Assembly (NCBI GenBank): GCA_973895155.1
Contig: OZ316891.1
Location: 11,654,771 to 11,718,770, forward strand
Direction of reading: 5' to 3'
Length of the DNA stretch: 64,000 bases
DNA from: Marsupella aquatica
Taxonomy: Eukaryota; Plantae; Marchantiophyta
Shown in pieces: positions 8,101-30,200 of this stretch. Made by a program: the position numbers and the translations under genes. The notes below the pieces were generated by a model. The model did no database searches. It was given only the letters and a program-made list of their open reading frames with translations, and was not told the origin of the DNA. Numbering within the stretch: the stretch's first letter is position 1; the number at the start of each line of letters is the position of its first letter.

Positions 8101-11100
8101 TTTCTGGGGAGATATAGTATAAAAATGGGACAAACAAAATGATCAGATCTCATGACAATCATGATGACCGAAAGCCAGACGATTACGACAGAATGCTGTA
8201 CCGTGTGCACAATGTGGCAAAGCTCAGAAATAATCATGTGAATGATGAGGACGTTCTGTACCAAATAGATAAAATACCAAAGGGGGCTAGTGGCCAACTT
8301 GCACCCAGGGAAGAGAGCAAGGCAGCAAGCCACGTGATATTGTCCTCGAAAAACTGTGCTGTCAGTGTGAACGACGTTTTGCGTGTTCATGTTTAGCACT
8401 ATGACATTCTCGTCAGTGCATCCAGCACACGTTTACTTTCTTTAAAGGGCTCCTTATTTGATGCCACAAGAAATTCCCCCAATCGGTCTGCAAGCCAGTT
8501 GTGTGGCTTGCTAAGGAAGGGTTTCCTTCTTGGAAAAGGAATTCCCCAAACATCTAAATTGTCTTCTTAGAGGTGATGATAGTCTTAGGCTTAAACAAGA
8601 GTTTCAAAGGTTGTGTGTGGGTCAAGGAATATCTTATTTCACACTTCAAACACGCTGCTTGAAGGTTTAAATTTCTTGATAAGTGCAACAAATAGAAAGT
8701 TTCACTCTTATCAATCATTATAAACTACCCTAAAAACATAATTTCTGTACCTGCAGTACAATTTAAAGTAGATATTGCATACTCAATAAGTGGAAGGACC
8801 AAAGGTACTCACGACCAGCTTGCACTTAGGGTGGCTTTAAAAGAAAGTGCGGGCACTTGTGAACTTCTTTGCCCAAAATAAACTGGAGAGCTCCGCTTAT
8901 TATTTCAAATATAGACTCCATACCAAAGATCTTTTGAAATGAAATTCAATAAACTCAAATCCCATGAATGAAAGAGTCAAAGTTTAGAAATGTTTAGACC
9001 GAATGCTCAAGCCAGGTGGTCTAAACTTCTAGACAAAATAAGCACCACATTAGCATTTACTTGGGCCCACTGTTTGCCATGTAGGATTGGTAGACACCAT
9101 ATATGAATGGGCCCCCAAGTTCTTGTAAAGCCCACTGCAGCACTTTCCATTCATTACATTGTCTACTTAGATTTTATCTTAAATGATGTCATTGTGCCAA
9201 AAAGGCAAAAATGCCAAACCTGGAGATAGGGTCCCAATGACAAAGCGGGCCAATAAAGGGAAATGGCCCCAAGAAGACCAAAGAGGCCAAACAAGCCAAG
9301 GACCCCCCACAACCAAAAATGAGCAAAGACAAAGACCAAAACAGGGAACACACTAAGTAGCTGAGAAGACTAACGCCTTACTAGGCTGAGAACCCAGGTA
9401 GATCTCTGGAGTAAACCACATAGAAGGATCCCGAACATGAATCTTTCTAGAGGCCCTAAAACCAACTGCTTTGGCCCTCTGAAGTGCAACCAGGAGTGCA
9501 ACAGATTGACGCACCTTTGTCAAAAGAAAGTGTTGAGGACAGATACACGAGGGAAAGGCCTCCACGCAATACAAAAAATTGCACAGGTCGGAGGAACTGG
9601 TCGGATGTAAGGTTGAGAGCACCAAAAATCTTAGAGCAAAAGGGTAGAAAAGATCTCTGGGTAGAAATTTGCATAGGCTTTCTCCTTGAGCTGGGCTGCC
9701 TTGGCTACAGCTTGTCCAGGCCTCGGGGTCCAGGCACATGTTATTGTTCCATGGAGATATGGTGCAACAATGTGATGAAGAGGAAGGAGCTCAAACAAAA
9801 GGGGGGCCATCAAGGACTGGCAGATAGTCAAACTCCAGAACAAGTCCTAGCACAATTTAAGAGGCAGACCCAAATAGAGTCAGAAGGTGCCTCAAAGAGC
9901 ATGCTAGAAAGGGTGTGATGCTGTATGCAATCAGAAATCACTTGCTGAACACGATTTGAACTGTGTAAGACTCCCGGTAAGACTACCTCCATGAAGGCTG
10001 GAACAACAGCCTGCACAACCTTGAGCAAAAGTGATAGGGCCTGGCCAAGGCAAACCTGAAATGGGAGGACCCGGCCAATCCTCCACCCCCATGACATGGT
10101 CAAAGAGGATAGGCTAAGATCCGCAATGAAGCTAGAGGCAAGGGTAGGGACCACCAACGCCCTTGGAACTACTGAGGAACGCACGAGGAGCCATGGAGAC
10201 AACTGATGAAAGAACCATGCCACCATTGCAACAAGGCAGGGCAGCCTGCTTGGCAACAAACAAACCATCCTCTTTGTCAACTAAGGGCTCCGGGGCCAAC
10301 AAGGTGTCCAAAGCTCCCCATCAGAGTGGTGATAAAGGATGAGAACAAGGACAAAAACAAAGTGGGTGGTATCATGCACTGAAGATACAATGGGCACCAG
10401 ACGAAGCACTGGACCAGTATCATGAAGCAATCTGAATGTCGCCAAGAGCTACCAACTGGTCAATGTGATGAAACACCACCACAAAGGGCCTGAAACAATA
10501 CAACTCACACACAACAGCAGGCCAACGCCAACCGCCATCAAATACCAACATACACCAAACGAGCCTAGTCCGACAAAGCACGACACTCGGCCCCACATAA
10601 TAGAAACTAGTTGCCGACCCACGAGGCCAACCGTTGGCGGCCAAAAAGTCAAGCTAAAACGCCTTGCCGAGCACCAGCACCAAGGCAAGGCCCAGTCAAG
10701 CCAGCCAAAGTACAGATGCCAGGTGGACATAGGGACCCAAAACACATCAGCGAAGGATGGGGTCCGACCGCATGTGTGGCCACCAATCTCAGGTGTGGCC
10801 ATAGGGCTGCGAGGTCAACCTCTTGGCGAGTGACCTCCCAGGAACTCCCCCAGCCCTGTGGGAGGGCGTTCCAGCAAAGTTGGGCGCAGGGTTGGACTTG
10901 CACTTGAGTACCCCGGACAACCAGCAGCTTCGCATGCACTCCCGGCTCTGTTCAATCTTAGAGGGAATGAAAGCAAGACAATGTGCCTGCAAGGTCTTCT
11001 GGAGCTTATGCCAGACTTCTATGATAGGCCAAACTGATGGAAAGAATTGGCAAGATCTATTTACGGACCCCATGAGAGGTCTCTTCCAAAATTCTTGGCA

Positions 11101-11452
11101 CCAGAGTGTGCCATGTCAACAACAACCGCAACAAACAAGACTCATCAATTTTGTGAATCAAACTTATAGTTTTCATTCGTGTTTGTGTCAATTTGGGTGT
11201 AAATTGTGGGACACCATGCCATAAAAAGAAAAGTAAAAAATTAGAAATGCAAAGAGCAAGACTGTTAAAAGTGTCACTATGTAACAATTTTAGTTACGTA
11301 TCCAATTTTTATACTTAAATTCAAAGATTTTTAAAAAATATCTTTCATATAATAAATAATGAATAATAACTAACTTGATAACTTCCTTGTTAAAGGGTAA
11401 TTGGCTCTTGGAGTAAGATTTCCGGCCCTTTGCAATTAAGGTAAACTGCTAG

Positions 11453-11855
11453 CCATGGCCCGAACTTGAACTCAACGAACTAATACAATTTATTTGATCG
11501 AACATACATTGATCTGGTTTCAAATGCAATTGCCACAGATTGAATTTTGACTCTCTTAGCTTGATAACCAGGTTGTCCAACCTGCAAAGCAAAGTATTCC
11601 TACGGCAGCTGAAGGAATGCCAAACTGCCAACTATGGTCCGAACTGGAACTCAACAAACTGATACAATTCATTTGATTAGACATTAATCCAATTTCAAAT
11701 GGACTTGCCACAGATTGAATTCTGACTCTCTTAGCTTAAGAATTTGGTTGCATGTAGCAAGAAGACATGATTTTGACAACTACTTAATTGTGATAACCAC
11801 ATTGTGAACTCCTGCAAAGCAAAGTGTGGCAGTTGAAGGAATGCCAAACTGCTCA
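11453..11855. repeat. Tandem duplication, ~180-bp unit, two copies plus a partial third
   Basis: ATGG(C/T)CCGAACT(T/G)GAACTCAAC...TTGCCACAGATTGAATT(T/C)TGACTCTCTTAGCTT occurs at ~11455 and ~11635. CCTGCAAAGCAAAGT...GAAGGAATGCCAAACTGC occurs at ~11581 and ~11811. Confidence 0.8.
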
Positions 11856-12635
11856 GGCCATTGCTGAATGGGTCCACAATGATTCTCTGAAAAAATCTAA
11901 TCTAAAGAATGCAAGCTTTAAAATCTATCTTATTTGTCCAACACAACATGACTACCAGCTTCCCTTCCTAATCAAACTTCTCTCTTCTCTAAGCTTAAGC
12001 TTTGCCATTCTCCATTTGATGAATAGTTGCGTCAAGGTGATGAGGCTATTAACCTTTAATTCAAAACTTGTCAAAGTCGGACTGCAGTGAAATCTCCAAA
12101 ATTTCCAATTATTTGAAAGTATGTTGACAAATCGGGCGACACATTTTCTACAAACATGACTTAGCTACTAGAAAGCTTAGATCACAGTATTCATTAAAAC
12201 TGGAAATTTAAAAGTCCAGATTGTGATCCTCAAATTTACATTCTTGTCTCTAAAAAGTCCATTAATTTTGCTCCAAATAAACAATTTTTCAAGACTAAAT
12301 ATACACTCTTTTTGGTTTAAAATTACACTTTTGCACTCCAAATTTGATTTTAATCAATTAATCATAATACAGAAATTATTAATATTAATTGTATTTGAAA
12401 TTAAATAGATAAGTGACAAACATGTATCATTTGGTCAAAAACTCATGATTAAATTCAAAGTGAGATTAATCATCTCATTTATCATAACATATATTCAAGG
12501 TTGGCTAGCCATAATGTCGATCCTACTCCAATGGTCAAGCTAGTGTAAAGTCCAAAGTAGTTCTATGACCTGTGAAATAGAAAAATGATTGCATGACTCC
12601 AATCTTGTGTCCTACAATGTACAGAAACATAATGA

Positions 12636-13708
12636 TTAATCATCTAAAATTTCAAATTCTATGCCTCCATGAATATGTCTACATGACTGATTTGAACAAG
12701 TGAGTTGCTCTCCATTTGGGTCATATAGTCTGTCACAAGTGCAAGTGTCTTTGGGATAACGGTTTTTAAACTTAGAGGTGAGATCCCTAGTCTTTAGAAC
12801 TTCCCAGACAAATCGGCGAGGATTTTCTCTGAAGGGACCTGCATAAGACTCGCCCAAACAGTTGTTGACCACATCTTTCATATCATCTTCGGTCAGGTTC
12901 TCAAATGTAGGGTAGGATTGTACCATATCCCTCACTTCCCAACATATCTCATCTCCAGTGACATCCAAGATGGTATACTCAATCTTGGAACGCCAAATCT
13001 TACTTCCCCACTTATGGGAAAGTAAATCATAGATTGCAGCATTACTTTCACGGTCATCATTTATATTAACAAATGACCAAAGTGGATTGTTGACAGATAT
13101 ATATTGTCGGATGTCATAAGCCTTCCACAATTTTCTAAGGAATGACCAAAGTATCTCTGGTAGAAAAGTGTCACTCTTGGCAATGTGTGAGAAGGGAGTT
13201 GGGAACAAACCACTATACTGTGGATTTGCAAAAGCCTTCACTGGAGAGTCATCAATAAGTAGAGTGTTTGTATCATCATACTTGTCTCCAAAATGACTCC
13301 ACACCACACGCAAATCCTTCAACATAATATTTTCTTTCCCATCTGCTACGTCCGGTCTTTTTATGCCAGTATCAAAAGCATCTTCTTGTGTGAAAACAAA
13401 TTTAAATTGCCTCCGCTCCTCTTCTTTGAAAATCAAATTCATCATTTCATTAGTTCTTGGCCTCCCCGCACAAGTCCACAATGCGACATCAAAACCTTTG
13501 AAAGCCACCTCCAAAAATTGGTGCAACCCTGGCCTTTCCACGTACATGAAATTGAATCCACCCCGTCTCCCCCAATGCACACCCCGCACAGTTGTTGTAG
13601 ATCTTAACGGTCCCGAGCTTTTTGTTTTGACGCAATCCCAACAAATTTTGTTCAGGTCCAAAATCAAGAGTTTTCTTCTTATATCAGAGTGCAATTTAGG
13701 AGTGAAAT
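12636..13708 (-). CDS. FCP1/NIF-family HAD phosphatase-like domain exon (last exon of the cargo gene)
   Basis: LLILDLN (motif I, DxN variant), YVERPGLHQFL, VALWTCA, LKDLRVVW, NTLLIDDSPVKAFANP: the motif series of NIF/FCP1-like proteins. Confidence 0.8.
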
Positions 13709-14026
13709 CTGCAAAGATCCAAATGAATCAAAATTATATCTAAAAGATATATAAGAAGAACTTAGGGTCAAACCTGGATCGACCTGACCTAATGGGGAAA
13801 ACAAACATATCATTTTTGAATGTCAAAGCATTTTGATATATCAATGTAGAAGTACCTTGCTCAAATGCTTTGTCTTGGACCAGGGTACCGCTTGCTGAAG
13901 GTAGACCAATAATATCCTTCGATGGAAGAGATGCTATGACAAAACTTTGGTCTGTCCATATATGATTTCCAAACATAATATTTTAGATTATTGTGAAAAA
14001 TAGAATAACAAAACCATAATATTAAC

Positions 14027-16310
14027 CTCCACTACTAAATGACCCATATTCATCTATCATTTTATCACCTAGATCACTTTGGATATCAGAATTGACGCCA
14101 ACAGGAAGCTGCTCCACCAACGTTGGCGGCGCAAACACTGGACTCAATCTCAATTTGTCTATTATGTAATCAGGTTTGACCATTAACTTAGGCGCATCCT
14201 CCAACGTTTCTTTCAATCCAACTTTAGGTCCATTTCTCCAAATGAAATGAGTTGCATGACGGACTGTCTTCATATATCCTGTTCTACCTATCTCAGATCC
14301 AGACTTTTGAGACAAGCGTAATATTATGGGGCTTCCGCTTGACATCCTTGTGAAGACCAATTTATTCCCTGACGAACAAAATTGAGGAGACTCGGAACAA
14401 GTTGAAGCACCTGCCTCTTCAGCTTCAACATTTGTTGTCTCTCCAAGTGGAAGGTTGTCTTCAATCGCTTCTGCAATACCAACTTGTAGGTCCGTGGTGG
14501 GTGTAGTGGCCCCAATATTCTGCCAACCTACATCCAATGTGCACGATACCTGCGGTCTCTCAGGATGCAATTTTGATACTTCAGGGTTGAGAGGATTTGA
14601 TGGAGGGTCGCTCTCAGGGCGACCCGACATCACTATGTTGAGTTGAGGTAGCCCTTCAACACCGTAGGTAGTAATGCCAACCATTTCTGTTGCTCGAGCA
14701 TCCCAATTTCCGCCAAAATCCTCCTCTACCATAGGACTTGAACCTCCATCGTCATGCTGCAACTCACCATCCTCAAGGTCAACTCGCTGAGGGCCCGGTT
14801 GGGGGTTGTCCATAGGCCCGCAAAGAACACTTAGATGAGCTCTCCTAGGACCATGTACTCCCATCCGCTCTTTCATAAGGGAGGGAATCCTGTTGCACAA
14901 AACCCTTGCATATGCTTGGGTGAAATGGTGTTCTTGCAAAGTGTCTGAATAGACAAAACAATCTCGGTATGCCAACAAGGCCACCTTCAAAACCTGCCCT
15001 CCTGAAAAAAAATCGAGGACAGTCTCCCCCTCACCGGAAAAACATTCAATAATATTTTTGAGCATGTGTCGGGGCTTGGCATGCGGATTGACAAATCCTC
15101 CTCGACTTCCGACCATCTCAAACATTGGAGCTTGCCGCAATAAATCTGCCATATCAAATGCGGGAGATTGCTCCTCTGTCTCATTCTCTTTTCCCTTGCT
15201 TTTCTCTTGCTTGTCAGCCTTCACTTCAATATTGAAATCACAGTCAACATCGGGGTGAAAACTAAATTTTGAATTGAACTCTGGCTTAAACAATTGATTC
15301 CAATCAAAATTGTCTTCACCTATAATTCCATCAAAAATGACCTGCTCAATCGCTCCTGTAAAAATTAAGCCCTGCGGATTTGGGCGATCTTCCCGATCAT
15401 AACTCCCGTATTCAACATGGATGGCCAAATGCTTTTTATGTCCTAATTTCCTTAGGGCACTTAAGATGTTGGCTGGAAGTGGCCCTGGATGAGTAGTCAT
15501 GACAACTACAATGGTTGTATTCCTTGGCAACTCCACAATATATTGGAGCAATACAAAAATTTCCGAATCTGTCCATTCATGTTGTTGTGCCCTACTAAAA
15601 TCAACAATTGCAAGTGGACACATTGGCGTCGCCTCTTCCAATAACTCTGGCGTGGTTGTCTTCATTAGATTCTCACTGAAGAACGTCAAGAAAGGCTCTG
15701 TTCGTGTGCGCCCAACTCCACCAAATTGTTTGCAGTACAACCCGTCTAATCTCACCATTAGACTTTGAGGGAAAGCCTCCTTCACAATGTTCTTCCTTAA
15801 TAAACTGCTAAGGTAGGCCTCCCCAACTGCTCTTCGCAATTTTGTCAGCTCAAGTTGAGATCCCAAGGCCGGCATGATGTTGACCACCGAAGCCCACGAT
15901 GTCCCCCCGGGAAACTTCTCCTTGTGCTTCTCAACAAAGTACTCAACAATGACTTGCTTCAATTTAGTCATTACCTTGATGGTATGAGCCATATCTGGCA
16001 TTGACACCAGATCCATCTTGTTGGAGGCATCTTTCTTGAGAAGTGCTTTCTTCTCATAAACCGCAGTCAATATATCAATGATATCCTTAGAGCTGATCTC
16101 CCCTTCAAAACATCTAAAAAGAGTTGACGGGACCAGCTTTAGTGGCCGCGGCCCACCATACTCTCCTGCCCCGCCAGGGAGCTTCCCTGCCAACCAATCC
16201 CAACAAACAGTTTGCCATAAATGGAAAAGCTTATCCTCAGCAAAGAGCAACCAAAAAATGGCTTTCAAGCTCGACTTTCCCATTGTTATCTTTGCGAGGG
16301 CAAACCAATC
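14027..16310 (-). CDS. Exon containing a beta-class amino-methyltransferase-like (N6_N4_Mtase-like) fold, catalytic motif degenerate
   Basis: VNPHAKPRHMLKNIIECFSGEGETVLDFFSGGQVLKVALLAYRDCF resembles the HPxxKP..L..II...S..GD.VLDPF.GSG...AA...GR SAM-binding end of beta-class MTases. The upstream PLAIVDFSR lies where the (D/S)PPY motif would be expected. Confidence 0.6.
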
Positions 16311-16522
16311 TTGCATTTACATTCATCCACCAAAAAACATGTTAGATGTTTAAACTTAGAAACTTCAACTTCTCTGCCTCGCCCCTAGAGCGAGGCGAAG
16401 AAAATGACAAAGCCATATGAAAATGGTTGGGGCAATCATTGTATTCATCATTCAATTTCATTTGGGTCGCTCTAAGAGTGAGGCAAAATTAAAGTACAAT
16501 TCCAACTAATGAAAATGTTTAC

Positions 16523-18039
16523 CTGGTATTTCTGGTTGTCTGTACTTTGGTTTGTTCCAATTCCTGGACGCGGTGGTTTCCCACATTCATCAAATTGCCT
16601 TCTCGCATGAACAACTGTCTCTAGAAAACAAGACTTAAACTGCATGGTCTGATTTACTGCATTTGAAAGGCTCGAGTGCTCGACCAAAATTGCCCTTGGA
16701 GTGAGGTCTGATAAGATCCTCGCTTTCCGATATTGGAGTTTGCTAGCAAGATCAGTTAGCTTGGCATCCTTGTCTGCCCACCCTTGAATCCATTGTGCAG
16801 CCTTTGCGGAATGTTGCCCACTGATTGCAAGAAATTGTATCTCTTGCTTCTTAACACCAAACAAAAATTGCTTCCGATCGCGTGCGGTATTGTCAAAATG
16901 TAACAACTGCTTAGTGCGCTCTAGAAATGGAATCAAATCTGCAACATGTGGTTCCTGGCCAGGGTTTTTCATCATTGATTTTGCTATCTCTAAGGCATGA
17001 GCCTGGTTGAACATCCGATACACAAAAATTGCAGTAGGCGGAAGAATACTTTTAACCGGGATTTCAAAAACCTCCCTGATTCCAAAAGTGTAGTATTGCT
17101 CGATGTTCCGCAAAGCTTTCTGCCCCTCCAATACATCTCGTTCCTCTGGTGCATCTGTTGGGCATGTATCATCCTCTGGATCCAAGACCAACCTTGCTTT
17201 TGACGCTGACACGGGCTTTGATTTTCCAATCTTGGCCTTCTTCTTGGGCTTCTTGTCGGAGTCCTTATCTTTCTTCTTCAACGCCGCCTTTTTTCCTCTA
17301 GTACTTCCTTCACTCCTTGGCTCTCTTTGTTTTCTCTTCTTCTGTGTTTCAGCCGACGTCATTTCTTTGGCCTTCATCTTCATCTTCCCCTTACCTCGAT
17401 GCTTTTCTTCCTTCTTCTTTTGAGTTGAAATCCACTTCATGCAAGCATCTTCGTCAAACTCATCAGAGAAAATAAAACTCTTATCAATTGCTTGCTCATA
17501 TGAAAAGCGTGCTGTTTCAATCATCCTTTGGACAACCCATGTGTTAGGAAGATCTATAAGGTCCGGATGATCATGCATGTACCGCTTCACAGAGAGGAAT
17601 CCAAAGACAACATCAACCCCACTCAATTTGAATCTTCCATGCCTCTCAAGAACATCCTCTGCAGTGAACCCATCTGGAAGAAATCCCATTGAACAAATAC
17701 TAGCCTCCGAGCGTGCTATCCACTCCACGTTGATAATTGACGAGTACATCTTGATTGGCAAGTAAAGTCTCATCCACTGAGATCTTTCTCTGGATTCAAT
17801 AATGATTGTAACATTGCGGTTATCACTGCAATTTACAAGGACCACAGGGCCCAACGCAACTATCTTCTTGTCGTTCATTGTCTCAGCAGTGATTGCCTTG
17901 ATACAAATCATTGACAAGTCATTCTCCATGATCCCTACTTCAAGTGCCCACAAAAATCCTGCCTTATCTTGTCCAGGGAAAATAAAGTCCTTGACATCCT
18001 CGGCCATAATATTTAACTCTGGGGATCCAAGTTGTTCTC
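16523..18039 (-). CDS. Exon with a Lys-rich segment and a ParB/sulfiredoxin-like domain
   Basis: FEIPVKSILPP...YRMFNQAHALEIAKSMM...QFLAISGQHSAKAAQW resembles the ParB/Srx fold with a hydrophobic-x-G-Q-H motif. It is preceded by a basic, NLS-like stretch (KKRKQR, KKPKKKAK). Confidence 0.55.
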
Positions 18040-18124
18040 CTGGAAAAACAAATTGAAACGACAAACATTAAAGCAAGAGATCTTCTGTGTTGCCTCGCCC
18101 CTAGAGCGAGCTGGAGACAAGGTC

Positions 18125-18487
18125 TGCATCAACAAACATGTGGGTTGGGTCGCTCCTCGAGCGACCCTAGGAAAACTTAAATCAAGGTCCAACCAACAAC
18201 AAATTTGGATCGCTCCTGGAGCGACCCTAGGAAAACTTAAATCAAGGTCCAACCAACAACAGAGTTGGGTTGCTCCTGGAGCGACCCTAGGAAAACTTAA
18301 ATCAAGGTCCAACCAACAACAGAGTTGGGTCGCTCCTGGAGCGACCCTAGGAAAACTTAAATCAACGTTCAACCAACAACAAAGTTGGGTCGCTCCTGGA
18401 GCGACCCTAGGAAAACTTAAATCAACGTCCAACCAATAACAACGACAAATCTTAGGCAAGATAGGGTCGCTCTAAGAGCGACCCTTC
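18125..18487. repeat. Tandem array, 60-bp unit x5 plus partials, each with the palindrome GGGTCGCTCC-T-GGAGCGACCC; inside intron 1 of the cargo gene
   Basis: Near-identical sequence lines at 18181, 18241, 18301 and 18361 show an exact 60-bp period. Confidence 0.95.
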
Positions 18488-18980
18488 AAAGACTAACTTG
18501 CATCAATTGTTGAATCATACTTACGTGGAACTGTGATATGAAATCCCCTTGAGGCGGCCAAAGCGGATTCCACCGACATCTTTAGTAAAGTGTCTTGAGA
18601 ATCATACTCAAAGATTTTACTAGAATCAAAGTTCAGGGACTGCCCAGAACTAGAAGTGCTAGTAGAATCATCAGAACTAGAGGAAGTGGCCATTGAAAAA
18701 TGCCTCACAAATGTTTAGATGACATGTGGCAACCTAGTATACAAGAATGCCTATAGCTAGACCACACCACGGAGCGAGGCTACAGAGCAAGGAAAAAAAT
18801 CTACTATGAGCAAGGCAAAATCAACAGAGCGAGGCAAGAAAATCTACTATGAGCGAGGCAAGAGGGAGGAGGGAAACCAGGGCAGCCGGTCAAGAAGACA
18901 ATGAAGGAGGAGATGGATGCAAGAAGACAATGAGGCAAATGAGGTAATGTCTTTGCCTTTTGCCTTCCTATACCCTCACT

Positions 18981-19033
18981 GCCACGGCCGATCGTACGCC
19001 ACGGCCGATCCTATGCCACGGCCGATTGTACGC
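18981..19033. repeat. 17-bp tandem repeat x3 (GCCACGGCCGATC/TGTAC-like) in the divergent intergenic region
   Basis: gccacggccgatcgtac gccacggccgatcctat gccacggccgattgtac. Confidence 0.85.
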
Positions 19034-20019
19034 GACCTTACGCAACCCAGCCACTTGCTCCCTTCCACGCGCCTGTGAACTCGCAACCCTCATAATGACC
19101 TAGCTGTACGGGTATCCATAGATTTTGAAAAATGATGCACGGTCGTACGGGTGTCCACAGAATGCCGATCAGAGTAATCAGACTTTCGGCCTCTCGATGT
19201 TGTGAACCCCTTCAGGACAAACTTGGCTAAAGCTTGCTCACAAATGGTATAAAGCTCTACAGATCCAATCATTTCTCTCTTTTGTATGGCGCGTGCGTTT
19301 CTGGTCATTGCTCACTCTCGGTCTTGCCCTTCGGCCCTTGTCTATCTTGCTTCTGTTTGGTGACTGATTCGACTGACTTGGACATTTATGGTTACAAGAG
19401 TTCGTGCAAGGAAAGTCCTGTTTCAAGTATATTGCATTAGTTTTGGTGTCCTTGGTTGGCGACACGTCTTCTATAGTCCTTAAGAGAGGTATTACTTCAT
19501 CTACCATTCTCTTAATTTCTTCTCTATGATATCCACCAAATATTTGGCCCTAGCTTTATGACCTAACTAAGCCCTAGATAATGTAGGGTTCCTAACGACA
19601 CACTCGTCTACCCACACGTCTACACACTTCAATGGTCTAATTCAGCTTAATCATTCCCCTGATTTATTCCTCGGGGGTTTCACTTCCACAAAAATGGCAT
19701 ATCACGTGCGACGAAGGATAGGGTCATTTTATTGGTTCTAAGGGAAGACTTAAGAATTTTTGTAGAAGAACAATAGGGTCTTTTAAATTCAATTTTGAGA
19801 CTTATAAGAACATTAGGGTCCTTTTAATCCAATTTTTAGAATATTCCAAGAATATTCCAACTTTATAGGGGTTAATAAATAATTTTTTTTTCTTACATTT
19901 TAGGGGGTCCGAGGCCTAAAAACGTCGCAGGCGATGGGGAGGTCCCCATATAGTGAGACCCCTGAGATTTATTCATTTCCATATTTTCTCTTTTCCTTCA
20001 CAATTCTTGCTTCTCCAGG

Positions 20020-20456
20020 ATTGTGCTCATCTTTTCTTGCTCTCCCCTTGCCTCGCTCCAAGAGCGTCATGCCCTTGCCTCGCTCCAAGAGCGTCATACA
20101 CTTACCTTTCATCAGGAGCATCCTGCCCTTTCTTTTCTCCAAGGGCATCCGCTCTCCATTGCCTCGCCATCAGAGCGTCCCTCAACCGCCTCGCCCCTAG
20201 AGCAACCCTCCATCGCCTAGCCCCTAGAGCGACCCTCATTCACCTTGCCCCTAGAGCGTCTCTCCATCGCCTCGCCCCTAGAGCGACCCTCATTCACCTC
20301 GCCCCTAGAGCGTCCCTCCATCGCCTCGCCTCTAGAGCGACCCTCCATCGCCTCGCCCCTAGAGCGACCCTCCATCGCCTCGCCCCTAGAGCGTCCCTCA
20401 ATCGCCTCGCCCCTAGAGCGTCGCAACCTTGCCTCGCTCCAAGAGCGTCCCTGACC
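20020..20456. repeat. Tandem array, 27-bp unit (CGCCTCGCCCCTAGAGCGACCCTCCAT), about 15 copies, upstream of the transposase
   Basis: Visible directly, and gives the 9-aa periodicity (RLAPRATLH) in the overlapping spurious ORFs. Confidence 0.95.
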
Positions 20457-20629
20457 TTAGAATCCTGTTGTGTAAAGCCAATACACATAAACTCCCAAAT
20501 ATTTTTTTCCTTTAAATTGAATTCAAATGTTTAGATCTAATATTGTAATATCTAGAGTAGTGCTTATCAGTATGCACATCAGCTGAACAATTTTTAAATG
20601 TTTTTGGATGCAGAGATCCTTTCGCTACC

Positions 20630-23600
20630 ATGAGTAAATTTATGCGAGGGGATGAAGTTTCATTGATAATTGATGGTTTTGAAGTGGCAATTGGGACCAT
20701 CCAAAAGGTTGATCCCAAAGACACTATACACAATATTTGTCTTGGGAAAAATCGAATTGGGGTCCTTATCGAGAGGTGTCTTGAAACATCTTGTCCACTA
20801 CCATTTCCATCCAAAACATCATCGAGCCTAGGTGATGCAGTTGACTCGTGTGTGATCTGGGATTCTTCCTTGGCATATTTGAGGTCTTCAACATTGCCGA
20901 AAAGAACCGCTGTGGATGGTGTTCCTACTCCAGTGGACGGGGATGAAGGATGTTCCGAAATGGATGTTGGTGGTAAAGGAGGCAACCTTGCTGAAGGAGA
21001 GGAGGTTGAGATGTTCATTTTAGATGAACTTGTATCAAAAGGAGTTGTCTTCAATACCAATCCAATGGACACTTGTCATAGTGAACGACTCGGTGTTGGC
21101 CGTGTCAGTATACAAATATCAGAGGTTGTTCAGGGAAATAGAAAATTACCGTATCCGCATCCTGGAGCTGACACAGTGCAAGAGGCAATGCAGACTTGGG
21201 TAATGTGGGATGTTGCTGATGTTTCAAGAAAAGGCTCTATTCGAGGTTCTGGCATGTTTGTTGGTGCAAACCCGGGTGCAAACCTGTTTAAGGATCTTCC
21301 ATTGAAAGATTTTACAATGCGTTCCAACTGGATGGCAGAGGAAGTTGACTTGTATGATGTTTCTCGTTGTCGTAAGGTTGCGACAGGGGTTATCACAGTT
21401 CATTTTGAAGCAGGTGCTGTTGATGATGAACTTCTTGGTCCAAAGCATGTGGGTGTAGCTGTTGTGAATATCAACGATCCCGCATTATTTCCAAATATCC
21501 GTGCTGGTACTCCAGGTTTGGTGAGGTGGGAAATCAAATCTTTGTTGTTGATTTCATCTCAAATGTTTCTCGGGGATATCCTTGAGAAAGGTTCACATGT
21601 GTGGATAGAATCGGGTCGAAATGAGAGCGACCCGGATTTGGATGGTGATGGGAAACCTCCAAAAAGACCTTATAATTTCATTAGAAGAACCAAAGTGGAT
21701 CTGGAGGAGAAAAAAAAACATTTGCAATCAAGGGCGCTTTTGAAAATCACCGAGGAGTCCATTGATTCCATCCAAAGAGAAGGTTGTTGCAGGTTAAAGT
21801 GTTGCTTGAACATGCCAAGAGAGGACTTGGAGGCAATGAGGAGGGAATTTCATGGAATGTCAAGTGACAACAAACAAGTCATATCTTCAATCTTTTTGGG
21901 TGTAGAGAAGACCAAGTCAAGAGAAAAGGATTTTTTGTTCTAAAGGGACGTGTGGTTTGTAAGGATGCGTTCATAAAAATGCATGGGTTTAGTACGGCAA
22001 AGTATTATGATTACAAAAATCAGTACGAAGCTGGGTGCACAATTGGTTTCCATGGAAATCAAGGGCAACATAAGACACGATCAAGCACCTTGCATGCTCG
22101 TGCATTGTTGGAGTCCATTTTAATCCAAAATGGAGAACCAATGCCACATCTTCCCTATGGTGGGTCCAACGGCACCGATACTGTCAAATATCGACTCCCA
22201 TCATGTTTCACTAAGAAGGAGATTTTTCAAGAGGTATTTGCAAAGATGGAATTGGACGGCTATGCTAAGGTTACTGAAGTTACCATGTACAACATCTGGA
22301 AAAATTCTTTTGATAATTTTGACTTTCACAAGGGCAGTGCATTTGCCAAGTGCACATTTTGCACTGAGTTCAAAGATCAATTGATGCGGGAGAAGAGAAA
22401 AAAGAGCGTGCAGAGATTGAAGAGAAAAGAGCACGACATCTTCATGAACAAATGTCAAGGAGATATGTTTACTATGCTCATAGGGTTCTTGCAAAGAAGG
22501 ATCCTCAAAACTATCTTTGCATTATTCATGATAAGATGGACCAAGCCAAGACTTGGATCCCCAGATTGGTCCCCACTCCAAAATCTCTCTCTGGTAGTGG
22601 TCAACCTCTGCCCATTGCCCTTACTGGGATGTTAACCCATGGAAGGGATCCAGGAGTGTATGCACACTTTAGTTTGACTGGCCTTTGGCCTGGAGATGCA
22701 GACTTCACTGTGACATCTTTGGCCAAATGCCTTCGAGATTTGGAGGATTACACTGGAGACAAAACGGGAGACATGCTTGAAGCTTTCAATTGGAACGCAA
22801 CTAGGCCAATATTTCAGTCTCTTTTGGACTTTGAAGCATTTCAAGCGGGTTACTTGGAACCCAAAAATGTTTCAATTCTCAAGTTTCAAGGCCTTGATGA
22901 CGGTTAGGAGAGCCAAAAAACCAGCACAACAGATGCTGGTTCTAGAGTTGATCCTGAGACTACGAGCTCTTTCAAGCCCTTACCAAGGCACCTAACATTG
23001 CAGATGGACAATTCAGGAAAAGATAATAAAAATCAATATGTGATGGCATTTTGCAACGAGCTTGTTAGCAGGGGGTGTTTGAAACTGTGCAAATGTCATT
23101 CCTCATGGTTGGCCACACCCATGAGGATGTGGATGCACTATTTTCTCAAGTATCCAAACAGGTCAGGTACAAAGAGGTTGCTACCCTCCTTGCGTTGATG
23201 GCTGAGGTTTGGGAGTGTGAAAGCATCCATCCCGTACCACGATTGATTCAGGAGGTTGCATCTTACAAGCACTATTTGAAGGCTTTCCAAGTGAAAGAGA
23301 TTGAAGGTCACTCAAAACCAGTGGCATTTCTATTCTCCATGAGGGATAATGTGCCAGTGTATCAATATAAAGCACATGTCAAACAACCTTGGCTTCCAGC
23401 AACAGGGAGGTCAATTTGGAGAACTGATCTCATCACAAACACACTCATTTTACCGGAGGGCCAACCATTTGCAAAACCTATATCGGGGGAGGTACAAAAG
23501 AAAGCCGAGGAAATCATCCCATTCCTTAATCGTTACATTGATTTCTTGAGGAAAAGTTGCAAGGATGAGACCTCTGCAGCATACCGCGAGAGATTTCCTT

Positions 23601-24361
23601 TGGTGAAATATTGGGAGAGGCTTGTTATGGCACTCTCTGAGGCACTTACAATAGAAGGGGAGGGAGAAAGACAATTGTCATTGACAACTGATTTCTGGCC
23701 AAAGACTAACCATGGCACAGGTTACAAGGTGATTTTGGGGACCTCTCAACCTTCAAGTGAACCTACTCAAAATTCAGAGATGATGGACCTTCAAAATGAG
23801 TACATGGAAGAGATGGAAGGTCAAGCTGCACCCTTCGTTGGTGCACGAGAAGAGCGAGAACTTGCACGTTGGATTCCCCTACAAGATATTCAAGAGGGTC
23901 ACTTTGTGTTTTTACGTCCAGAGGATGAATGGGAGCAAAAAAATGGCAAAGGGCGTTTCTGGTTAGTTCGAGCTTTGGGTGGTGTGGATCCAAACCATGA
24001 GGTTTCTTCACTAGATTTGCAATTTAGTGAAGGGTCTTCTTCAAGGTTTTCTAAGAGCATTCACCTAAGTAGCATTCCTAAGCGGTATGCTCCTATGTTC
24101 CAAGTGCAATGGTGGAGGCCTAAACATGGTAAGCATGATGCAAAGGATGATGTTCGATACGAACGTTGCTTTCAGACCACTAAGACTTGGGAGCTAGATC
24201 CTGGGTTTAACACTATCACTCAAAGTTGGCAGTTTGCAAATTCTGCAATGTATGGGTTTAAGTCAGGTGCCAAAGAACAAAATATTATGGATAGAGGTTT
24301 GACAATTCCCAAGAATGTTTTGAAAACTCTCAAAACTTACATGGCAGGTATTGATGAGTAG
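20630..24361 (+). pseudogene. Frameshifted DDE transposase, Sola-like (DUF7869-type), with three N-terminal TNP1/En-Spm-associated-like (DUF8039-like) repeats
   Basis: Fragments 20630-21943, 21952-22635, 22452-22907, 22998-23198 and 23075-24361 carry CCRLKC, VCKDAF, CTFC, IIHDKMDQ, QMDNSGKDNKN and FLMVGHTHEDVDALFS. The VAxG.I...(D/H)...LG...V.I...LPxP...V.W unit occurs three times at the N-terminus. Confidence 0.75.
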
Positions 24362-25775
24362 AGTGATAGAGTGGTCACAAGTGTCCACTATGTAATGACT
24401 TGTAGGTAGGAGGGTCAAGTTAATTTCCATGCATTTGTCTAAAGTAAGTGAGAGAACAAGGCTTGCAATCAAATACTCTATGATCTTTCTTAGTTATTGA
24501 ATGGACTTTTTGATAATTATTGTATTTTTGTCTTAGTACATATATTTCTAGAAAATGATGGCAGTTCTAAGTTACTTGGATGTCATCCTAGTTTGAATAT
24601 AAGATATTTAACTTGTCTAGCATTTCATTGTTGCTTAGATAATGATCCTATCCAAGCTAGATGTTTTGAGTATAGATGCTATCCAAGCTTATGTGTTATT
24701 ACACACGTTCTATCTATTTTCAACCAAATGAACACTTTTTATCACCCAAATGTTTTTTAATATTATCCAAATTAATATTTTCTTTGCCCAAATGTCTATT
24801 TTTTTGCCCCAAATTTATAATTCATGATGCTTAAATTTTCATTTTTCATCCTTCAAATTTACAATTCTTATGCCTAAAAGTGTGTTTTTAAATGCCCAAA
24901 TTTCCAAATCTTCTTTATAATTCCACTTTTAATGAATATAGTGATTTAGGGTTTGTAGTTGAGAAAAGCAAGGAGAAAAGCAGACTTCTCAATTAGCCAA
25001 GGGGTCCACTAACTAATTAAAAATGCATTAAGGTTGTCTGGTCTTCAATTCAGGTTCTGGTTCACTCATACCCTGACAAATCAACACAATTATCAAGGAT
25101 TCTATCTCATTATAAACGAACCTTATGAATGTATGGTCTGCTAAGCTAATATGTTTGCCAGCAGGCAAGAGTTGGATGTTCAGGATGACAAAGTATGTTT
25201 TGTCAATGTTTGACAATGTTAACATAATGTTAAAGTCTGTCACTCGTACCTTTATGGGATATACAATAGACCATATATGGTTGACTATACATCCCTTAGT
25301 TAAAAGGGATACCTCCTGTCCTTAACCATATACATAACTATATACATAAAATCAGGAAACCTCCTTCCAATAAGCTGGGCACTTGACTTACAGGCAAGGA
25401 AAAACCCCTTTAATGTCATTGAAATTTGTTTTAATAATTCCTACCAACACTGCATGCAAGAGCTGGTCAGCGGCCCACAACACACTGAAGCCCCCATAGG
25501 TGCTTTAAAGCAAAGCTGTGGGGACCAGCTAGCAGTTTTTTTAGTTGCAAAAAATTGTCAAATTTGCTGAAAAGTCTCAGCCACTGGTGAATAATATTCC
25601 CCAAACTTTGTTGACTTTGATTGGCCAGTTTCCAATCTACTCACAAACTCTATTTTGTTAGAATGTGGTGGTTACCTTGAAATGTAAGGAAATCTAACAG
25701 TAAAAACTTTAGGGGGCAGAAAAGGAAAATAAGTTTTATAATTGGTTGATTTGGCCACAATCAACTTAGTTATTA

Positions 25776-26187
25776 ATAGGGCGTCTCAAACCTGCACATT
25801 CCCAATAAGTTTATAGCTGTGATATATGGAAACGATGCACATTCCCAATAAGTTTATAGCTGTGATATATGGAAACGATGTGTATGTTGTCTCGACCGAA
25901 ACTGGGAATTTGGTCAAATTTGCCTGGCTTGAATTTTGCTTGGAGACAAGTCACACAATGCCCTAGCAAAACAGCGCACATCACTGATATTTCATAGTGC
26001 AAAGACCATTCTTTGAAAGGTGCCCACTCATTCCATGTGGGGCAGTTCTTTGTGCCTAGGCCGGTGCACCGATTGCCCAAATTAGTGTTGGTCATGGTTT
26101 AGGGGCACCACATAATTTTGGTGCCCTGGCCTGCAACATTTTGGTCACTCGAATCTTTCACGAACCACCTAGTTTAAGACGCCCTAT
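25776..26187. mobile_element. MITE (~410 bp), TIR ATAGGGCGTCT(C/T)AAAC, flanked by TA
   Basis: Left ta-ATAGGGCGTCTCAAAC and right GTTTAAGACGCCCTAT-ta (15/16 match). Internal 43-bp direct duplication at ~25795-25881. Confidence 0.7.
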
Positions 26188-27588
26188 TAGTAGCTCCAGA
26201 ATAAAATTACGCACGACGCCTTGCTGATAAATTTTTTCTAAGAGTACTATCAAACACAATCAAAATGAATTCTATTGTCATAAAGCCGTTCGGAACCTTC
26301 TGTGCAAGATCTTCATGCAAGATTCAGAGTCGTCGAATACAACGAGAGACAATTTTCCTCCGCATGGAAACGAAACACGGTGAAAGATTCTGTGAGAGCA
26401 CTTTCTTATTGTGTTGTGTATTTCCTTCAAAAAAGGCGCAGGAATCTCGACTCGTACAGTAGGAGACATGTGTCTTGGGTGGGCAACTTTTGGATTCGGA
26501 GCTCGATTGTTCTAATAATGGAATTGCACTAGTTATGCGTATTGCAGCTTTTTGACCTCGATGACGATTGGAATGCGTGAAGCACTCTCTCTCTCTCCCC
26601 CCAAGGAGTGGGAAGCTCGCAACGGCATCAAAAGACGTGCAGATGTACACAGCGCTGGCCAACCCGAACGCAATGGGACACAGAAGAGTTCGATGGATTC
26701 GATTCTAATGGAATGGGAACGAGCAGCCCCAGGAAGATCCCTGTATTTAGTTGAAATCTCAAAGATATGAGAATCCACACGGAAGGGTTAATTGGGCGGC
26801 GGGATGGAGCCGATGAAAGAGGAGAGGAGAAAAGGAGGAGGAACGGAGAAGCAGAACAGTGGCGAAGAACGAGGACGGACTGGGTAGGTACGATAGGATT
26901 CGATCGATCGATGGAGCCATGAAAATCGATGAAATCCTGAATTCGTCTTCTTACACCCCCTTCTCCGGCTCCGTACCGCAGCTTTATAGCATGGTGCTGC
27001 GGTGGCCTGATTGCGCCCCTCGTGGGCTTGACTTTCATGTTTTCTAGGGAAAGTCGAATTTGCTCGAATGAAGGTGCGCCGTGAGAACAAGTTTGACCTG
27101 CGAGCCAAATTAAGCCTTTAAAGCTCTATGGATTACTACAGTGCAGCGAATGCAGGACCGGCACCATGGCGTCGGAAATCATCGGGTATGGCGCTTTTTG
27201 TCAAGGGCCTAATAATATATTTGGTTTGTTTGAAGCTTCATACTTTCTGGTGCTCCTTTCTGACTCTGTTGAGTGTTCGCCGTCGAATATAAATTAGAGT
27301 CTTAGTACACTTGCATTGTAGAATTACGAGGTTTGCCATCCTTCGTTCCTTACCGAGTAATCAATTCTTCCAATAATTGGAGTCGGTTAGTTCGTCTTCG
27401 AAGTAGCTGACTACTGTACCGTCCTGGGATGAAACTCGAACTTGTCCATTCTCACCAAACTCACCGTTCGATTCTTGTGCAGTAGATGCTACTTTAGGAA
27501 CAGCAGCAGTCTTCTATTGTCACCAAACTCACCAAACTCACTGGTCGATGCTTGTGCAGTAGAGGCTACTCTATCAACCGCAGCAGCC

Positions 27589-30200
27589 ATGACGGCAGCG
27601 ACTGCGCTCGGGCTACTCGTGCTTTTCTTCTTCTACCGATCGGTCCAAGAAGTGCACGGGACGTTCGACAATGTTGGGAGGTCACGGATTGTCGAGAGTG
27701 ATGTCGGGGTGGTCGCAGCTGATCACTTTTTGTGTTCGGACATCGGCGTGGACGTGCTGAAGCGGGGCGGAAAGGCTGTCGACGCTGCAGTCGCTGTCGC
27801 GTTTTGTCTGGGAGTCGCGAATCCCGGGGCTAGTGGAATTGGCGGAGGTGATTTCATGCTCGTGCGCCTTGCCGATGGCCGCGCTGAGGCGATTGATATG
27901 CGAGAGACAGCCCCTTTGCACTCCTCTGAGGTACCACAAACACCCGTTTTTATTCAATTCCTGCGACTAATACAGCGCAGCAATTGAAGTTTGACCATCT
28001 AGACCTTTTCGAGTGCGGAAAAGCAAGATATTGAATTTTCGGACTGATGTCTAGCCTTACTCATGAACGGAGCTTGTTTCTGCAGAGTATGGATGCCAAT
28101 TCCTTCAGTAGTGCTCAGCGCAGCGTAGAAATTGATCGATTTTTAGCTCGTTTTTTCCCGCAGATAGGCAAGACATTGGAATCGTTGGACTGATAACTCG
28201 TTTCTGCAGAGTATGTACGCCAATGATCTCGGAGGAAAAACCGTGGGCGGATTGGCCGTTGGAGTTCCTGGTCAAGTGAAGGGGCTGTATGAAGCATGGC
28301 AAAAGTACGGGACGTTGCCATGGGAGTGTCTCGTGGAGCCGGCCATTAAGCTCGCCGCTCACGGGTTCCCAGTACAACCATTTTTGGCTGCACAGATCCA
28401 GAGTGAGTTGCCAAGCGTCCTCGCAAACAAAGGTTTGAGGGATGTGTTCGCCCCCAATTACGTCCCACTTCTTGCTGGCGACATTTGCTACAGGAAGAAG
28501 TTAGCAGAGACGCTTGCAGCAATTGCAAAGGACGGCTCAGCCGCATTGTACTATGGTCCGATCGCCGAAGCGATGGTTGAGGATGTCCAAGCTGCAGGTG
28601 GTATTCTCACAATGGAGGATCTTGCAAGCTACAGAGTCCTTTTCACGGATCCTGTCATGGCAGAGACTTGGGGGCATACGGTGATTGGAATGCCCCCTCC
28701 TTCGTCTGGTGGTGTGGGCTTGATTCTGGTGAGAAGTTAGCTCCTTTTCATGGCGATTACTCCGATTTCCGCCCCTCGCTCCGTTTCTCGCACGAAGTAT
28801 ATAACGATATTGTTTTCTGAAACAGATTCTGAACATTCTAGCAGCTTTCAAAAACGCAAGTGCGATTAACGGAGATTTGGGTCTACATCACATCGTGGAG
28901 GCCATTAAGCATACCTATGCCGTTCGAGCCCACTTGGCCGATCCTCTCTTTGAGAACATCACTAGTGTCGTGGCTGACATGCTTTCTGCAGATTTCGCTG
29001 CTTCTTTACAGAAGACGATTGCTGACAATACCACCTTCGGGCCAACTCATTATGGTGGAAAGTGAGTCTCTAGGAGTGAATCCAAGATTGATTTCCATTT
29101 TTTAATTTTTATAATGCTGATTTCGATGAAAACATTTGTATGCATCTCCTTAATCCCACATACATTTGGTTTTTGCAGGTATCATCCAATGTCAGAAGGC
29201 GAGAATCATGGCACAAGTCATTTTAGCATCATTGACGCAAATCGAAATGCAGTGTCAATGACGTGCACAGTGAATTATGTGTTCGGAGCAAAATTCATCT
29301 CTGAGCGGACGGGCATCTTGATGAATAACGAGATGGATGATTTCTCAACTCCACAAGATTTGGTTCCCCCTCCTGGTGTTCCTGCAAAACCAAATTTCAT
29401 TATGCCCTATAAACGGCCATTGTCCACCATGAGCCCTACCATTGTGTTGAAGGTAAAATTTACACATATTCTGTCCACAGTAAAGAATGGATGGTAGATG
29501 GATGTTAGTATATATTGTTTTATTACCTAACCCTTTTCTTTAGCTTGTGTACATGTTAAATTCATTTTTGTTTTTTCTTTCTTTCTGTGTTTGTGAGTGC
29601 GTTAAATTAATCTTTGTTTTTGTTTTCTTTCTGCCCAGGATGGACAGATCAGAGCAGTACTCGGTGGGAGCGGAGGTATCAAGATTTTGACCACCGTGGC
29701 CCAAGTTTTGATAAAAATATTGGGAGGATTTGACCCTCTCTCATCAGTGGGTCTTCCAAGAATTCATCACCAGGTTTTTGTTCTAGTATAACCTCATTTG
29801 TCTTAAAATTTATTTATGTGGACTAAATATCATTCTTGTAGTGAACCAGGTTTCATCTTTGGAGTTATCACTCATTTGTCATTGAATACATTCCTTGGTG
29901 ACTAAGAGTTGGTTGTGATAATTGCAGTTATTACCTCATGTGTTATATTATGAAAACTACACCACAGTGAGGGGTGATATCGAAGTGTTACCAGAACACA
30001 CCTTGGATTTTCTTCGTACTAGAGGACACAATCTATCCCAGGAAACCAGTGGTGCAATATGTCAACTCATTATACATGATTTTCCTAGGCGTGGTAAAGA
30101 ACCTAAACATAAACATACGATGAAAAATAAAAGAGTTCATTGGGGAAAACTGATTGGTGTGAGTGATTTGAGAAAAGATGGTTATCCTGCAGCAATCTGA
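27589..30200 (+). CDS. GGT: Gamma-glutamyl transpeptidase / glutathione hydrolase, exons 27589-27930, 28210-28728, 28826-29061, 29179-29452, 29639-29773, 29928-30200
   Basis: GVVAADH..CSDIG, AVDAAVAVAFCLGV..PGASGIGGG.FMLVR, IDMRETAP, VGVPG, PPPSSGG, catalytic HGTSHFSI, NNEMDDFS, KRPLSTMSPTIV, GGSGG, terminal SDLRKDGYPAA. Junctions are GT-AG. Confidence 0.95.

Follow-up and report, generated by a model that had tools for sequence, protein, structure and literature searches.

Large eukaryotic transposons with ParB-like accessory genes have, as far as the accessible parts of the literature go, been described only in algae, where their function is hypothetical, while VANC is the one proven self-targeting system. 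In Ectocarpus, the element Sola1-1_Ec32 (21.5 kb, with AACCG termini, an imperfect terminal inverted repeat (TIR) of 282 bp and a 4-bp target duplication) encodes a 1104-aa protein with ParB and N4C/N6A-methylase parts, which its authors propose to bind and modify the element itself (accessible part of PMC12477816). Plavaka elements of Bostrychia carry a ParB-like accessory gene (PAG3) beside tandem inverted-repeat arrays, as well as a PF01555 methylase accessory gene (PAG2), and a self-binding hypothesis is put forward in the same preprint (accessible part of bioRxiv 2025.02.11.637652). The present analysis concerns a 64-kb stretch of the liverwort Marsupella aquatica (contig OZ316891.1, positions 11,654,771 to 11,718,770; hereafter the window), in which a transposase gene stands head-to-head with a gene for a cargo protein. 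Together they make up a two-gene DNA transposon family, young and repeated, of which the copy in the window is a decayed member, likely of Sola1 type. With middling confidence, the cargo is taken to be a predicted non-catalytic regulator of its own element, which would likely bind palindromic arrays by the shared promoter region and keep both genes transcribable against silencing. A first-pass annotation of the window had considered the architecture undescribed; however, both the Sola1 layout with a ParB-methylase gene on the opposite strand and the bind-and-modify-self idea occur in the two algal sources, i.e. the layout and the basic hypothesis are already in print for algae.

Two genes in one repeated element

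The analysis drew on four sequencing runs of two studies, with one run possibly made from the source sample. Contigs of run X1, 1.4-2.1 kb long, cover the cargo gene at depths of 314, 309 and 309 and the 5' part of the transposase gene at 286, with 349 at the right end of the element, compared to 13 and 15 in the flanks; both genes are thus equally deep at about 20 times the flanks (depth in such runs not being a strict copy number). The same is seen in X2 (488-670 for the element versus 34-42 for the flanks) and X4 (1118-2216 versus 32-35), and the X1 family contigs diverge from the window by 0.56% (40 of 7089 bases). In Riccia sorocarpa, the DUF7869 protein R1sor_018196 (KAL3700174.1) and the cargo relative R1sor_018197 (KAL3700175.1) are consecutive on the same contig, and a second transposase/cargo pair is 5 tags apart. 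The equal run depth and the consecutive Riccia accessions bear out the earlier claim that the two genes form one mobile element. Dispersed copies, a common end and differing flanks were all found, for the right end only. The named relatives of both genes are all from Calypogeia fissa or R. sorocarpa (30 proteins looked up of ~190 fetched).

That the two genes are unrelated neighbours, i.e. a host gene or a separate element beside a transposase remnant, is very improbable. It would agree with a left end that is only bracketed (11581-12203), with the fact that no single contig covers both genes, and with Riccia, where three of five transposase tags are without a known cargo tag in their vicinity; the other two have one of the 18 known cargo tags within 5 tags, the chance of which is about 1 in 1500 (estimated by hand for 18 cargo tags in a set of at least 22,323 at even spacing, which is optimistic, as transposons cluster). 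Besides the uniform depth and the consecutive accessions, however, the cargo-like tags of Riccia (at least 18) are dispersed, and one palindrome is common to the upstream/intron regions of both genes (see below). In metagenome contigs, an alignment search with exon 2 of the cargo gene found none of 121 candidates to be related and one with exon 3 found one of 215, a 1.8-kb contig too short to show neighbours. In viral contigs, two ordinary phage methylases were matched, and the transposase had no relative among 97. X1 also contains a second, diverged family with patchy matches at 16990-17933 (cargo, depth 474) and 21767-24472 (transposase, depth 424-517), which suggests another cargo-bearing family in the same genome.

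The open reading frame (ORF) pieces of the transposase gene (20561-24361, plus strand) match Pfam DUF7869 (E 4e-11 and 1.9e-22), and by tblastn residues 1-1245 of a 1250-aa relative are matched in four frames, with frameshifts at ~21875, ~22400 and ~23075 and an in-frame stop at 22905. Contigs from the runs carry one extra base at each of the three frameshift places, so that the gene may be unbroken at these points in related copies. The candidate triad consists of the D of HDK (22527), the D of QMDN (23001) and the E of GHTHE (23111), and full-length relatives retain HDK, QxDN and GHTHE (the first of these is absent from one of the 15 examined). The frameshifted DDE transposase that had been recognised by QMDNSGKDNKN and GHTHEDVD is thereby confirmed within the DUF7869 transposase, as is the head-to-head layout, the cargo ORFs being present on the minus strand. 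An alignment of the transposase found no match in the PDB. It is likely of Sola1 type, a label which is presumed for the DUF7869 transposase by parallel with Ectocarpus. The N-terminus (20630-21600) has internally repeated small domains that are also found in relatives, on which PF26133 is precomputed.

Table 1. Coordinates of the element and its parts (window positions)
Feature	Position	Strand	Remarks
Candidate full element	12111..25014	none	~12.9 kb; right end supported by contigs, left end a guess
Left arm of 46-bp, 80% inverted repeat (subterminal)	12167..12212	none	E 4.7e-7
Right arm of 46-bp, 80% inverted repeat	24914..24959	none	Same match; common high-depth block here
Right terminal block	24981..25018	none	Loose ends behind 25018: X1, 5 contigs (agreement 0.5); X2, 3 contigs (0.59); X4, record 26
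DUF7869 DDE transposase pseudogene	20630..24361	+	Three frameshifts, one in-frame stop
Cargo exon 1 (predicted)	18525..18693	-	ATG at 18693, GT donor
Cargo exon 2 (predicted)	16523..18039	-	N-terminal domain, lysine-rich linker, ParB/Srx-fold domain
Cargo exon 3 (predicted)	14027..16310	-	Helical region, methylase-fold domain, disordered linker, small conserved C-terminal block
Cargo exon 4 (predicted)	13856..13933	-	Small, may be skipped; from exon-join modelling
Cargo exon 5 (predicted)	12636..13708	-	FCP/SCP-type HAD (NIF) domain
ParB/Srx-fold domain	16643..17098	-	Model residues 314-465; SGQHS at 16808-16822
Beta-class amino-methyltransferase fold	14877..15704	-	Motif IV position IVDFSR (15591-15608); motif I DFFSGG (14997-15014)
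60-bp x5 array, cargo intron 1	18144..18442	none	One TCGC-N7-GCGW palindrome per unit; more sites at 18095 and 18467
27-bp array upstream of transposase start	20053..20452	none	13 palindrome sites; 27-bp x11 at 20154-20452
Two palindrome sites, cargo intron 2	16379..16481	none	One more at 14608 in exon 3
Unrelated miniature inverted-repeat transposable element (MITE) between the genes	19670..19966	none	Not element proper; 297 bp, 8-bp target duplication, ~14-bp inverted ends

Domains and motifs of the cargo protein

The cargo gene is predicted to have five exons, running from 18693 to 12636 on the minus strand. Exon joins without stops give 1670-1712 aa; of the single spliced frame of ~1734 aa given at first, the stop-free joining therefore stands, whereas the length does not and the splicing is a prediction. 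In Calypogeia gene models the ParB exon is joined to the next exon at Q-D-W. The acceptor at 16310, at a junction conserved in relatives, is CAA rather than CAG in the window copy, which would be either broken there or using an acceptor 21 bases on (16289). The frame of exon 5 contains no ATG upstream of HAD motif I and hence needs an upstream exon. Profiles of exons 2 and 3 were both matched in 12 of the 192 fetched proteins (some of them from the training alignments), including P0180 (1009 aa) with ParB-like and methylase-like parts in one protein, while three, all of them Riccia gene models, join a methylase-like to a NIF domain. A PH-like fold match of the N-terminal domain of exon 2 (Z up to 5.0) was below noise level and is not claimed. 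Residues 137-146 of the Riccia protein R1sor_018197 (P0182) read MARTKQTARK, which is taken to resemble the N-terminal tail of histone H3; this was seen in one of the 192 proteins, in a gene model with an uncertain start, and is absent from the window cargo.

Structure and sequence matches agree with all three domain calls of the first-pass annotation, i.e. ParB/Srx, a beta-class amino-methyltransferase fold and a HAD phosphatase-type domain. The ParB/Srx domain matches KorB (Z 8.1, root-mean-square deviation (rmsd) 2.7, 94 aligned) and PadC (Z 8.1, rmsd 3.2, 99 aligned), values close to the noise level of the tool, although each of rows 1-6 has a ParB/Srx fold. With Foldseek, the exon-2 model (mean predicted local distance difference test (pLDDT) score 70) has Noc, ParB and sulfiredoxin as its top rows, none of which reaches E 0.001, and the domain went undetected in Pfam, NCBIfam and PDB sequence searches. 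The nucleotide motif of ParB is GxxR, with an arginine. No such motif was found in the cargo, where SGQHS is invariant in 14 of 14 rows and the serine is present in all 21 SG[QA]H matches.

Residues 205-497 of the exon-3 model (mean pLDDT 51, core 60-85) match CcrM (Z 14.8, rmsd 4.5, 220 aligned), and fold ranks 1-11 (Z 12.2-14.8) are all beta-class enzymes, sharing a permuted Rossmann fold in which motif IV precedes motif I. Foldseek gives E 7.9e-7 against CcrM, and the domain matches M.RsrI by sequence (E 6.5e-6). Motif I aligns to the DFFAGSG loop of M.RsrI with one residue missing; it is DFFSGG in 35 of 65 rows, with a near variant in most others, and is the predicted binding loop for S-adenosylmethionine (SAM). 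Motif IV, placed by the strand ending at D239 and by the parallel with the phage enzyme, reads D-x-x-x in 48 of the 52 rows and has PPY in none of them. Likewise, [DNS]PP[YFW] occurs nowhere in 155 cargo relatives and none of them bears PPY, where the census drew on a profile built from the cargo family (9 earlier proteins and 146 new ones, the latter taken from the best 150 of 226 hits). Apart from TSPPY and the phage DPPY, the canonical catalytic motifs used here are those generally known for such enzymes. In a phage relative the motif is DPPY, and active Marchantia enzymes carry TSPPY (accessible part of bioRxiv 2021.02.12.428880). Judged by sequence, the methylase fold is thus family-wide without the usual catalytic motif IV, its aspartate mostly being kept. 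Self-marking of the DNA by the cargo as an amino-methylase, as had been considered at first, is unlikely, because none of the 52 relatives has a DPPY-type motif and because the element is CpG-depleted (see below).

It is also unlikely that the methylase is active via a non-canonical D-x-x-R/H motif, writing N4-methylcytosine (4mC) or N6-methyladenine on the element in the way that the algal sources suggest. The wholly kept beta-class fold, the motif IV aspartate and the conserved K-P and DFFSGG motifs would be in line with such an enzyme, as would the use of a 4mC methylase by liverworts (accessible part of bioRxiv 2021.02.12.428880); the consistent lack of [DNS]PP[YFW], compared to the Marchantia and phage motifs, and the low model confidence in the loops around the site speak against it.

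Exon 5 matches Pfam NIF over the full profile length (E 2.8e-16), with UBLCP1 as its nearest solved relative (E 5.2e-8). FCP/SCP HAD phosphatases have DxD as motif I, which was not found here: it is DLN in the window and DVE in Riccia (P0150), where motif IV is shortened as well. Some plant and fungal relatives are natively DLN, and DLN forms may therefore be active. In the predicted protein, all three cargo domains carry altered catalytic motifs.

Palindromic arrays, element ends and the proposed role of the cargo

Palindromic arrays lie between and inside the two genes, as noted at first, and their 15-bp palindrome has the form TCGC-N7-GCGW. The pattern TCGCYCYNNGAGCGW, derived from the arrays, has 23 matches at no more than one mismatch, all 23 of which fall within 12100-25020 (20% of the window), which supports the view that the repeats are the element's own; at two mismatches there are 24 inside the element and 3 outside in the 64-kb window. 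Cargo intron 1 contains eight sites, intron 2 two and exon 3 one, while another 13 precede the transposase start, and the palindrome is a candidate binding site of the cargo protein. Since the arrays lie on either side of the head-to-head gap, both ends being 5-7 kb away and without a palindrome close by, their position favours a role in transcription rather than in end-pairing. The MITE sits in this likely shared promoter region; X4 shows a joint from 19660 to 19966 without it, and the MITE itself is of very high depth.

The ratio of observed to expected CpG is 0.41-0.56 in the element genes, whereas a Copia element has 0.74 and three neighbouring host ORFs have 0.82-1.01. In the arrays it is 0.72 and 1.07 while the genes are depleted, which is partly built in, as the motif holds CG. 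For the comparison of the window copy with the family 14 differences were taken (from 40/1436 rows), 10 of which are transitions with A or T in the window copy (7 at CpG, 1 CHG and 2 CHH). CpG depletion and CpG transitions together imply that the element has long been a target of host 5-methylcytosine (5mC) and that protection of the whole element is unlikely, so that the earlier idea of protection by the cargo is not supported for the element as a whole.

As a regulator of its own element, the cargo would act locally. ParB and KorB proteins bind two-fold symmetric sites as dimers, and the ParB-like domain with the following helical region would recognise the palindrome, itself two-fold symmetric, in the same way. 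The methylase fold, with its SAM-binding loop retained and its base-activating motif lost, would serve as a DNA-binding or scaffold module (like METTL14), while the FCP/SCP-type domain would engage phosphorylated RNA polymerase II or another host phosphoprotein. The effect would be restricted to the arrays, because the coding regions are still 5mC targets of the host.

A different role is brought up by the ends of the element. On the right, family contigs end at 24945 in X1, X2 and X4, next to common high-depth blocks at 24913-24945 and 24981-25018; contigs diverge into unrelated flanks only behind 25018, which supports a right end at ~25014-25018, and another repeat begins at 25028. The left end was placed within 11581-12203, because the X1 depth is only 117 at 11571-11580 and the family contig begins at 12203. 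AATT occurs at 12107-12110 and at 25015-25018, i.e. 56 and 55 bases outside the arms of the 46-bp inverted repeat, and Sola1 elements prefer AWWT targets. As a 4-bp target duplication the pair is a weak hint, as the 1.3 kb searched on the left contains 26 AATT sites. For the final 55 bp at the right end, no good inverted match was found on the left side. Local alignment of the end regions scored 405 versus a shuffle maximum of 394, and a long TIR is therefore not claimed. The pair 12181/24945 with TTAG, from a scan for a TIR and target duplication, was dropped, as the inverted match extends past it and the flanks diverge only behind 25018. Nor is the 16-bp TIR first proposed (11364-11379/25760-25775, 15/16 matching) the end of the element: an equally good match arose in 11% of 300 shuffles, its right arm is in an X4 contig (25295-25822) at flank-level depth (34.7 versus 32.5), and its left arm is in a separate very high-depth repeat (~11067-11394, depth 6,000-10,000 in X1).

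With ends so poorly matched, the 46-bp repeat being all there is, the cargo could be a transposition helper, i.e. a ParB-like clamp on the arrays that bridges or compacts the 13-kb element for the transposase to pair its ends. CACTA, MuDR and Harbinger elements have a second protein that helps transposition, and the best fold matches (KorB, PadC, Noc and ParB) would suit such a clamp. Even so, a helper seems rather unlikely: the arrays are far from both ends, the arginine of the ParB nucleotide motif is a serine in the cargo, and at 82% likeness the runs show much greater depth for transposase relatives than for cargo relatives. The last point may mean that many of them move without cargo, or that the cargo merely diverges faster.

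Array position also bears on a self-limiting repressor, which would damp transcription by sitting on both arrays, that of its own intron 1 and that ahead of the transposase gene, like KorB on plasmid RK2 (a role taken from the title of a structure entry). SCP-type phosphatases, which remove polymerase II phosphates and can silence genes, would fit in as well. However, the family looks recently amplified, given its low divergence, and the phosphatase motifs are altered in both the window and Riccia, which makes such a repressor quite unlikely.

Some points nevertheless weigh against the regulator of transcription that is preferred here. The window copy shows methylation-type decay (7 of 10 transitions at CpG), and any protection would thus be incomplete; the anatomy would also suit a repressor acting on its own promoter; none of the 192 fetched proteins has all three cargo domains in one; only two of the five Riccia transposase tags are near a known cargo tag; and the motif census was made with a profile of the cargo family itself.

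As to the surroundings, degenerate direct repeats of ~177 bp lie left of the element (11443-11852). On the right there are a small element at the depth of the flanks (25768-26195), which has 24-bp inverted ends and contains a 43-bp duplication, a host gamma-glutamyl transpeptidase gene (27433-28740) that begins 2.4 kb from the element, and Copia-type retroelement ORFs with several stops (40267-44559, labelled from their translation).

Comparison with known systems

Compared by description, Sola1-1_Ec32 and the liverwort element, the latter only likely of Sola1 type, are both large elements with a second gene on the opposite strand that has ParB-like and N4C/N6A-methylase domains, but the accessible part of the Ectocarpus paper mentions no HAD domain and describes the methylase as predicted active (PMC12477816). 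Sola1 has also been listed in Physcomitrella, and other eukaryotic ParB-linked methylases and inactive transposon-borne methylases have been reported (accessible parts of PMC9033089 and PMC4738411, respectively). The Bostrychia elements differ in their EnSpm/Plavaka transposase, in their occurrence in red algae and in having separate genes, where ParB goes with a 2-oxoglutarate oxygenase and the methylase with SET (accessible part of bioRxiv 2025.02.11.637652). MpDN4MT1 of Marchantia and N4CMT of Adineta are, like the cargo, eukaryotic proteins of the beta-class amino-methylase fold (N4CMT with Z 12.6 to the model), but they are host genes of proven activity with intact TSPPY/SPPY-type motifs and, in the accessible sources, without ParB or HAD. 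The ParB-like part has a language-model likeness of 0.95 to fungal clusters, one of which has DUF3723 on 31% of its members, which is a lead only, without alignment or E-value. DUF3723 is a conserved cargo of Starships (accessible part of 10.1101/2021.12.13.472469), which, unlike the present family, are fungal tyrosine-recombinase elements.

Taken further, the cargo could be an independently evolved anti-silencing machine of three retired enzymes, with a ParB-like clamp on parS-like palindromes, a dead methylase fold reading or masking their CG sites and an FCP-like domain gripping RNA polymerase II, and thus the land-plant branch of a ParB-based accessory module common to algal Sola, Plavaka and Zisupton elements and perhaps fungal Starships (DUF3723). 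As a whole this is rather doubtful.

No land-plant description of the transposase and cargo gene pair was found in literature searches, which did not cover Repbase, Dfam, Iyer 2011, most subscription papers or bioRxiv supplements. As far as searched, the liverwort lineage, the loss of catalytic motifs throughout the family, the fused phosphatase-like domain and the defined candidate binding site are new. The family brings the ParB-methylase module to liverworts, for which transformation and methylome tools exist, and offers a specific candidate binding site in a family that is both young and present in many copies. With the methylase motif lost across the family, proteins of this kind would not have to write a mark, and the published hypothesis changes in this respect. 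Closest to the function proposed here is VANC of VANDAL (Mutator) elements, an accessory protein that binds the element encoding it and opposes silencing (accessible part of bioRxiv 2025.02.11.637652). The two are likened by description; they differ in superfamily and host group, and the activity of VANC is proven whereas the cargo is known from sequence. VANC binds internal tandem motifs, and the cargo would likely do so at its palindromic arrays.

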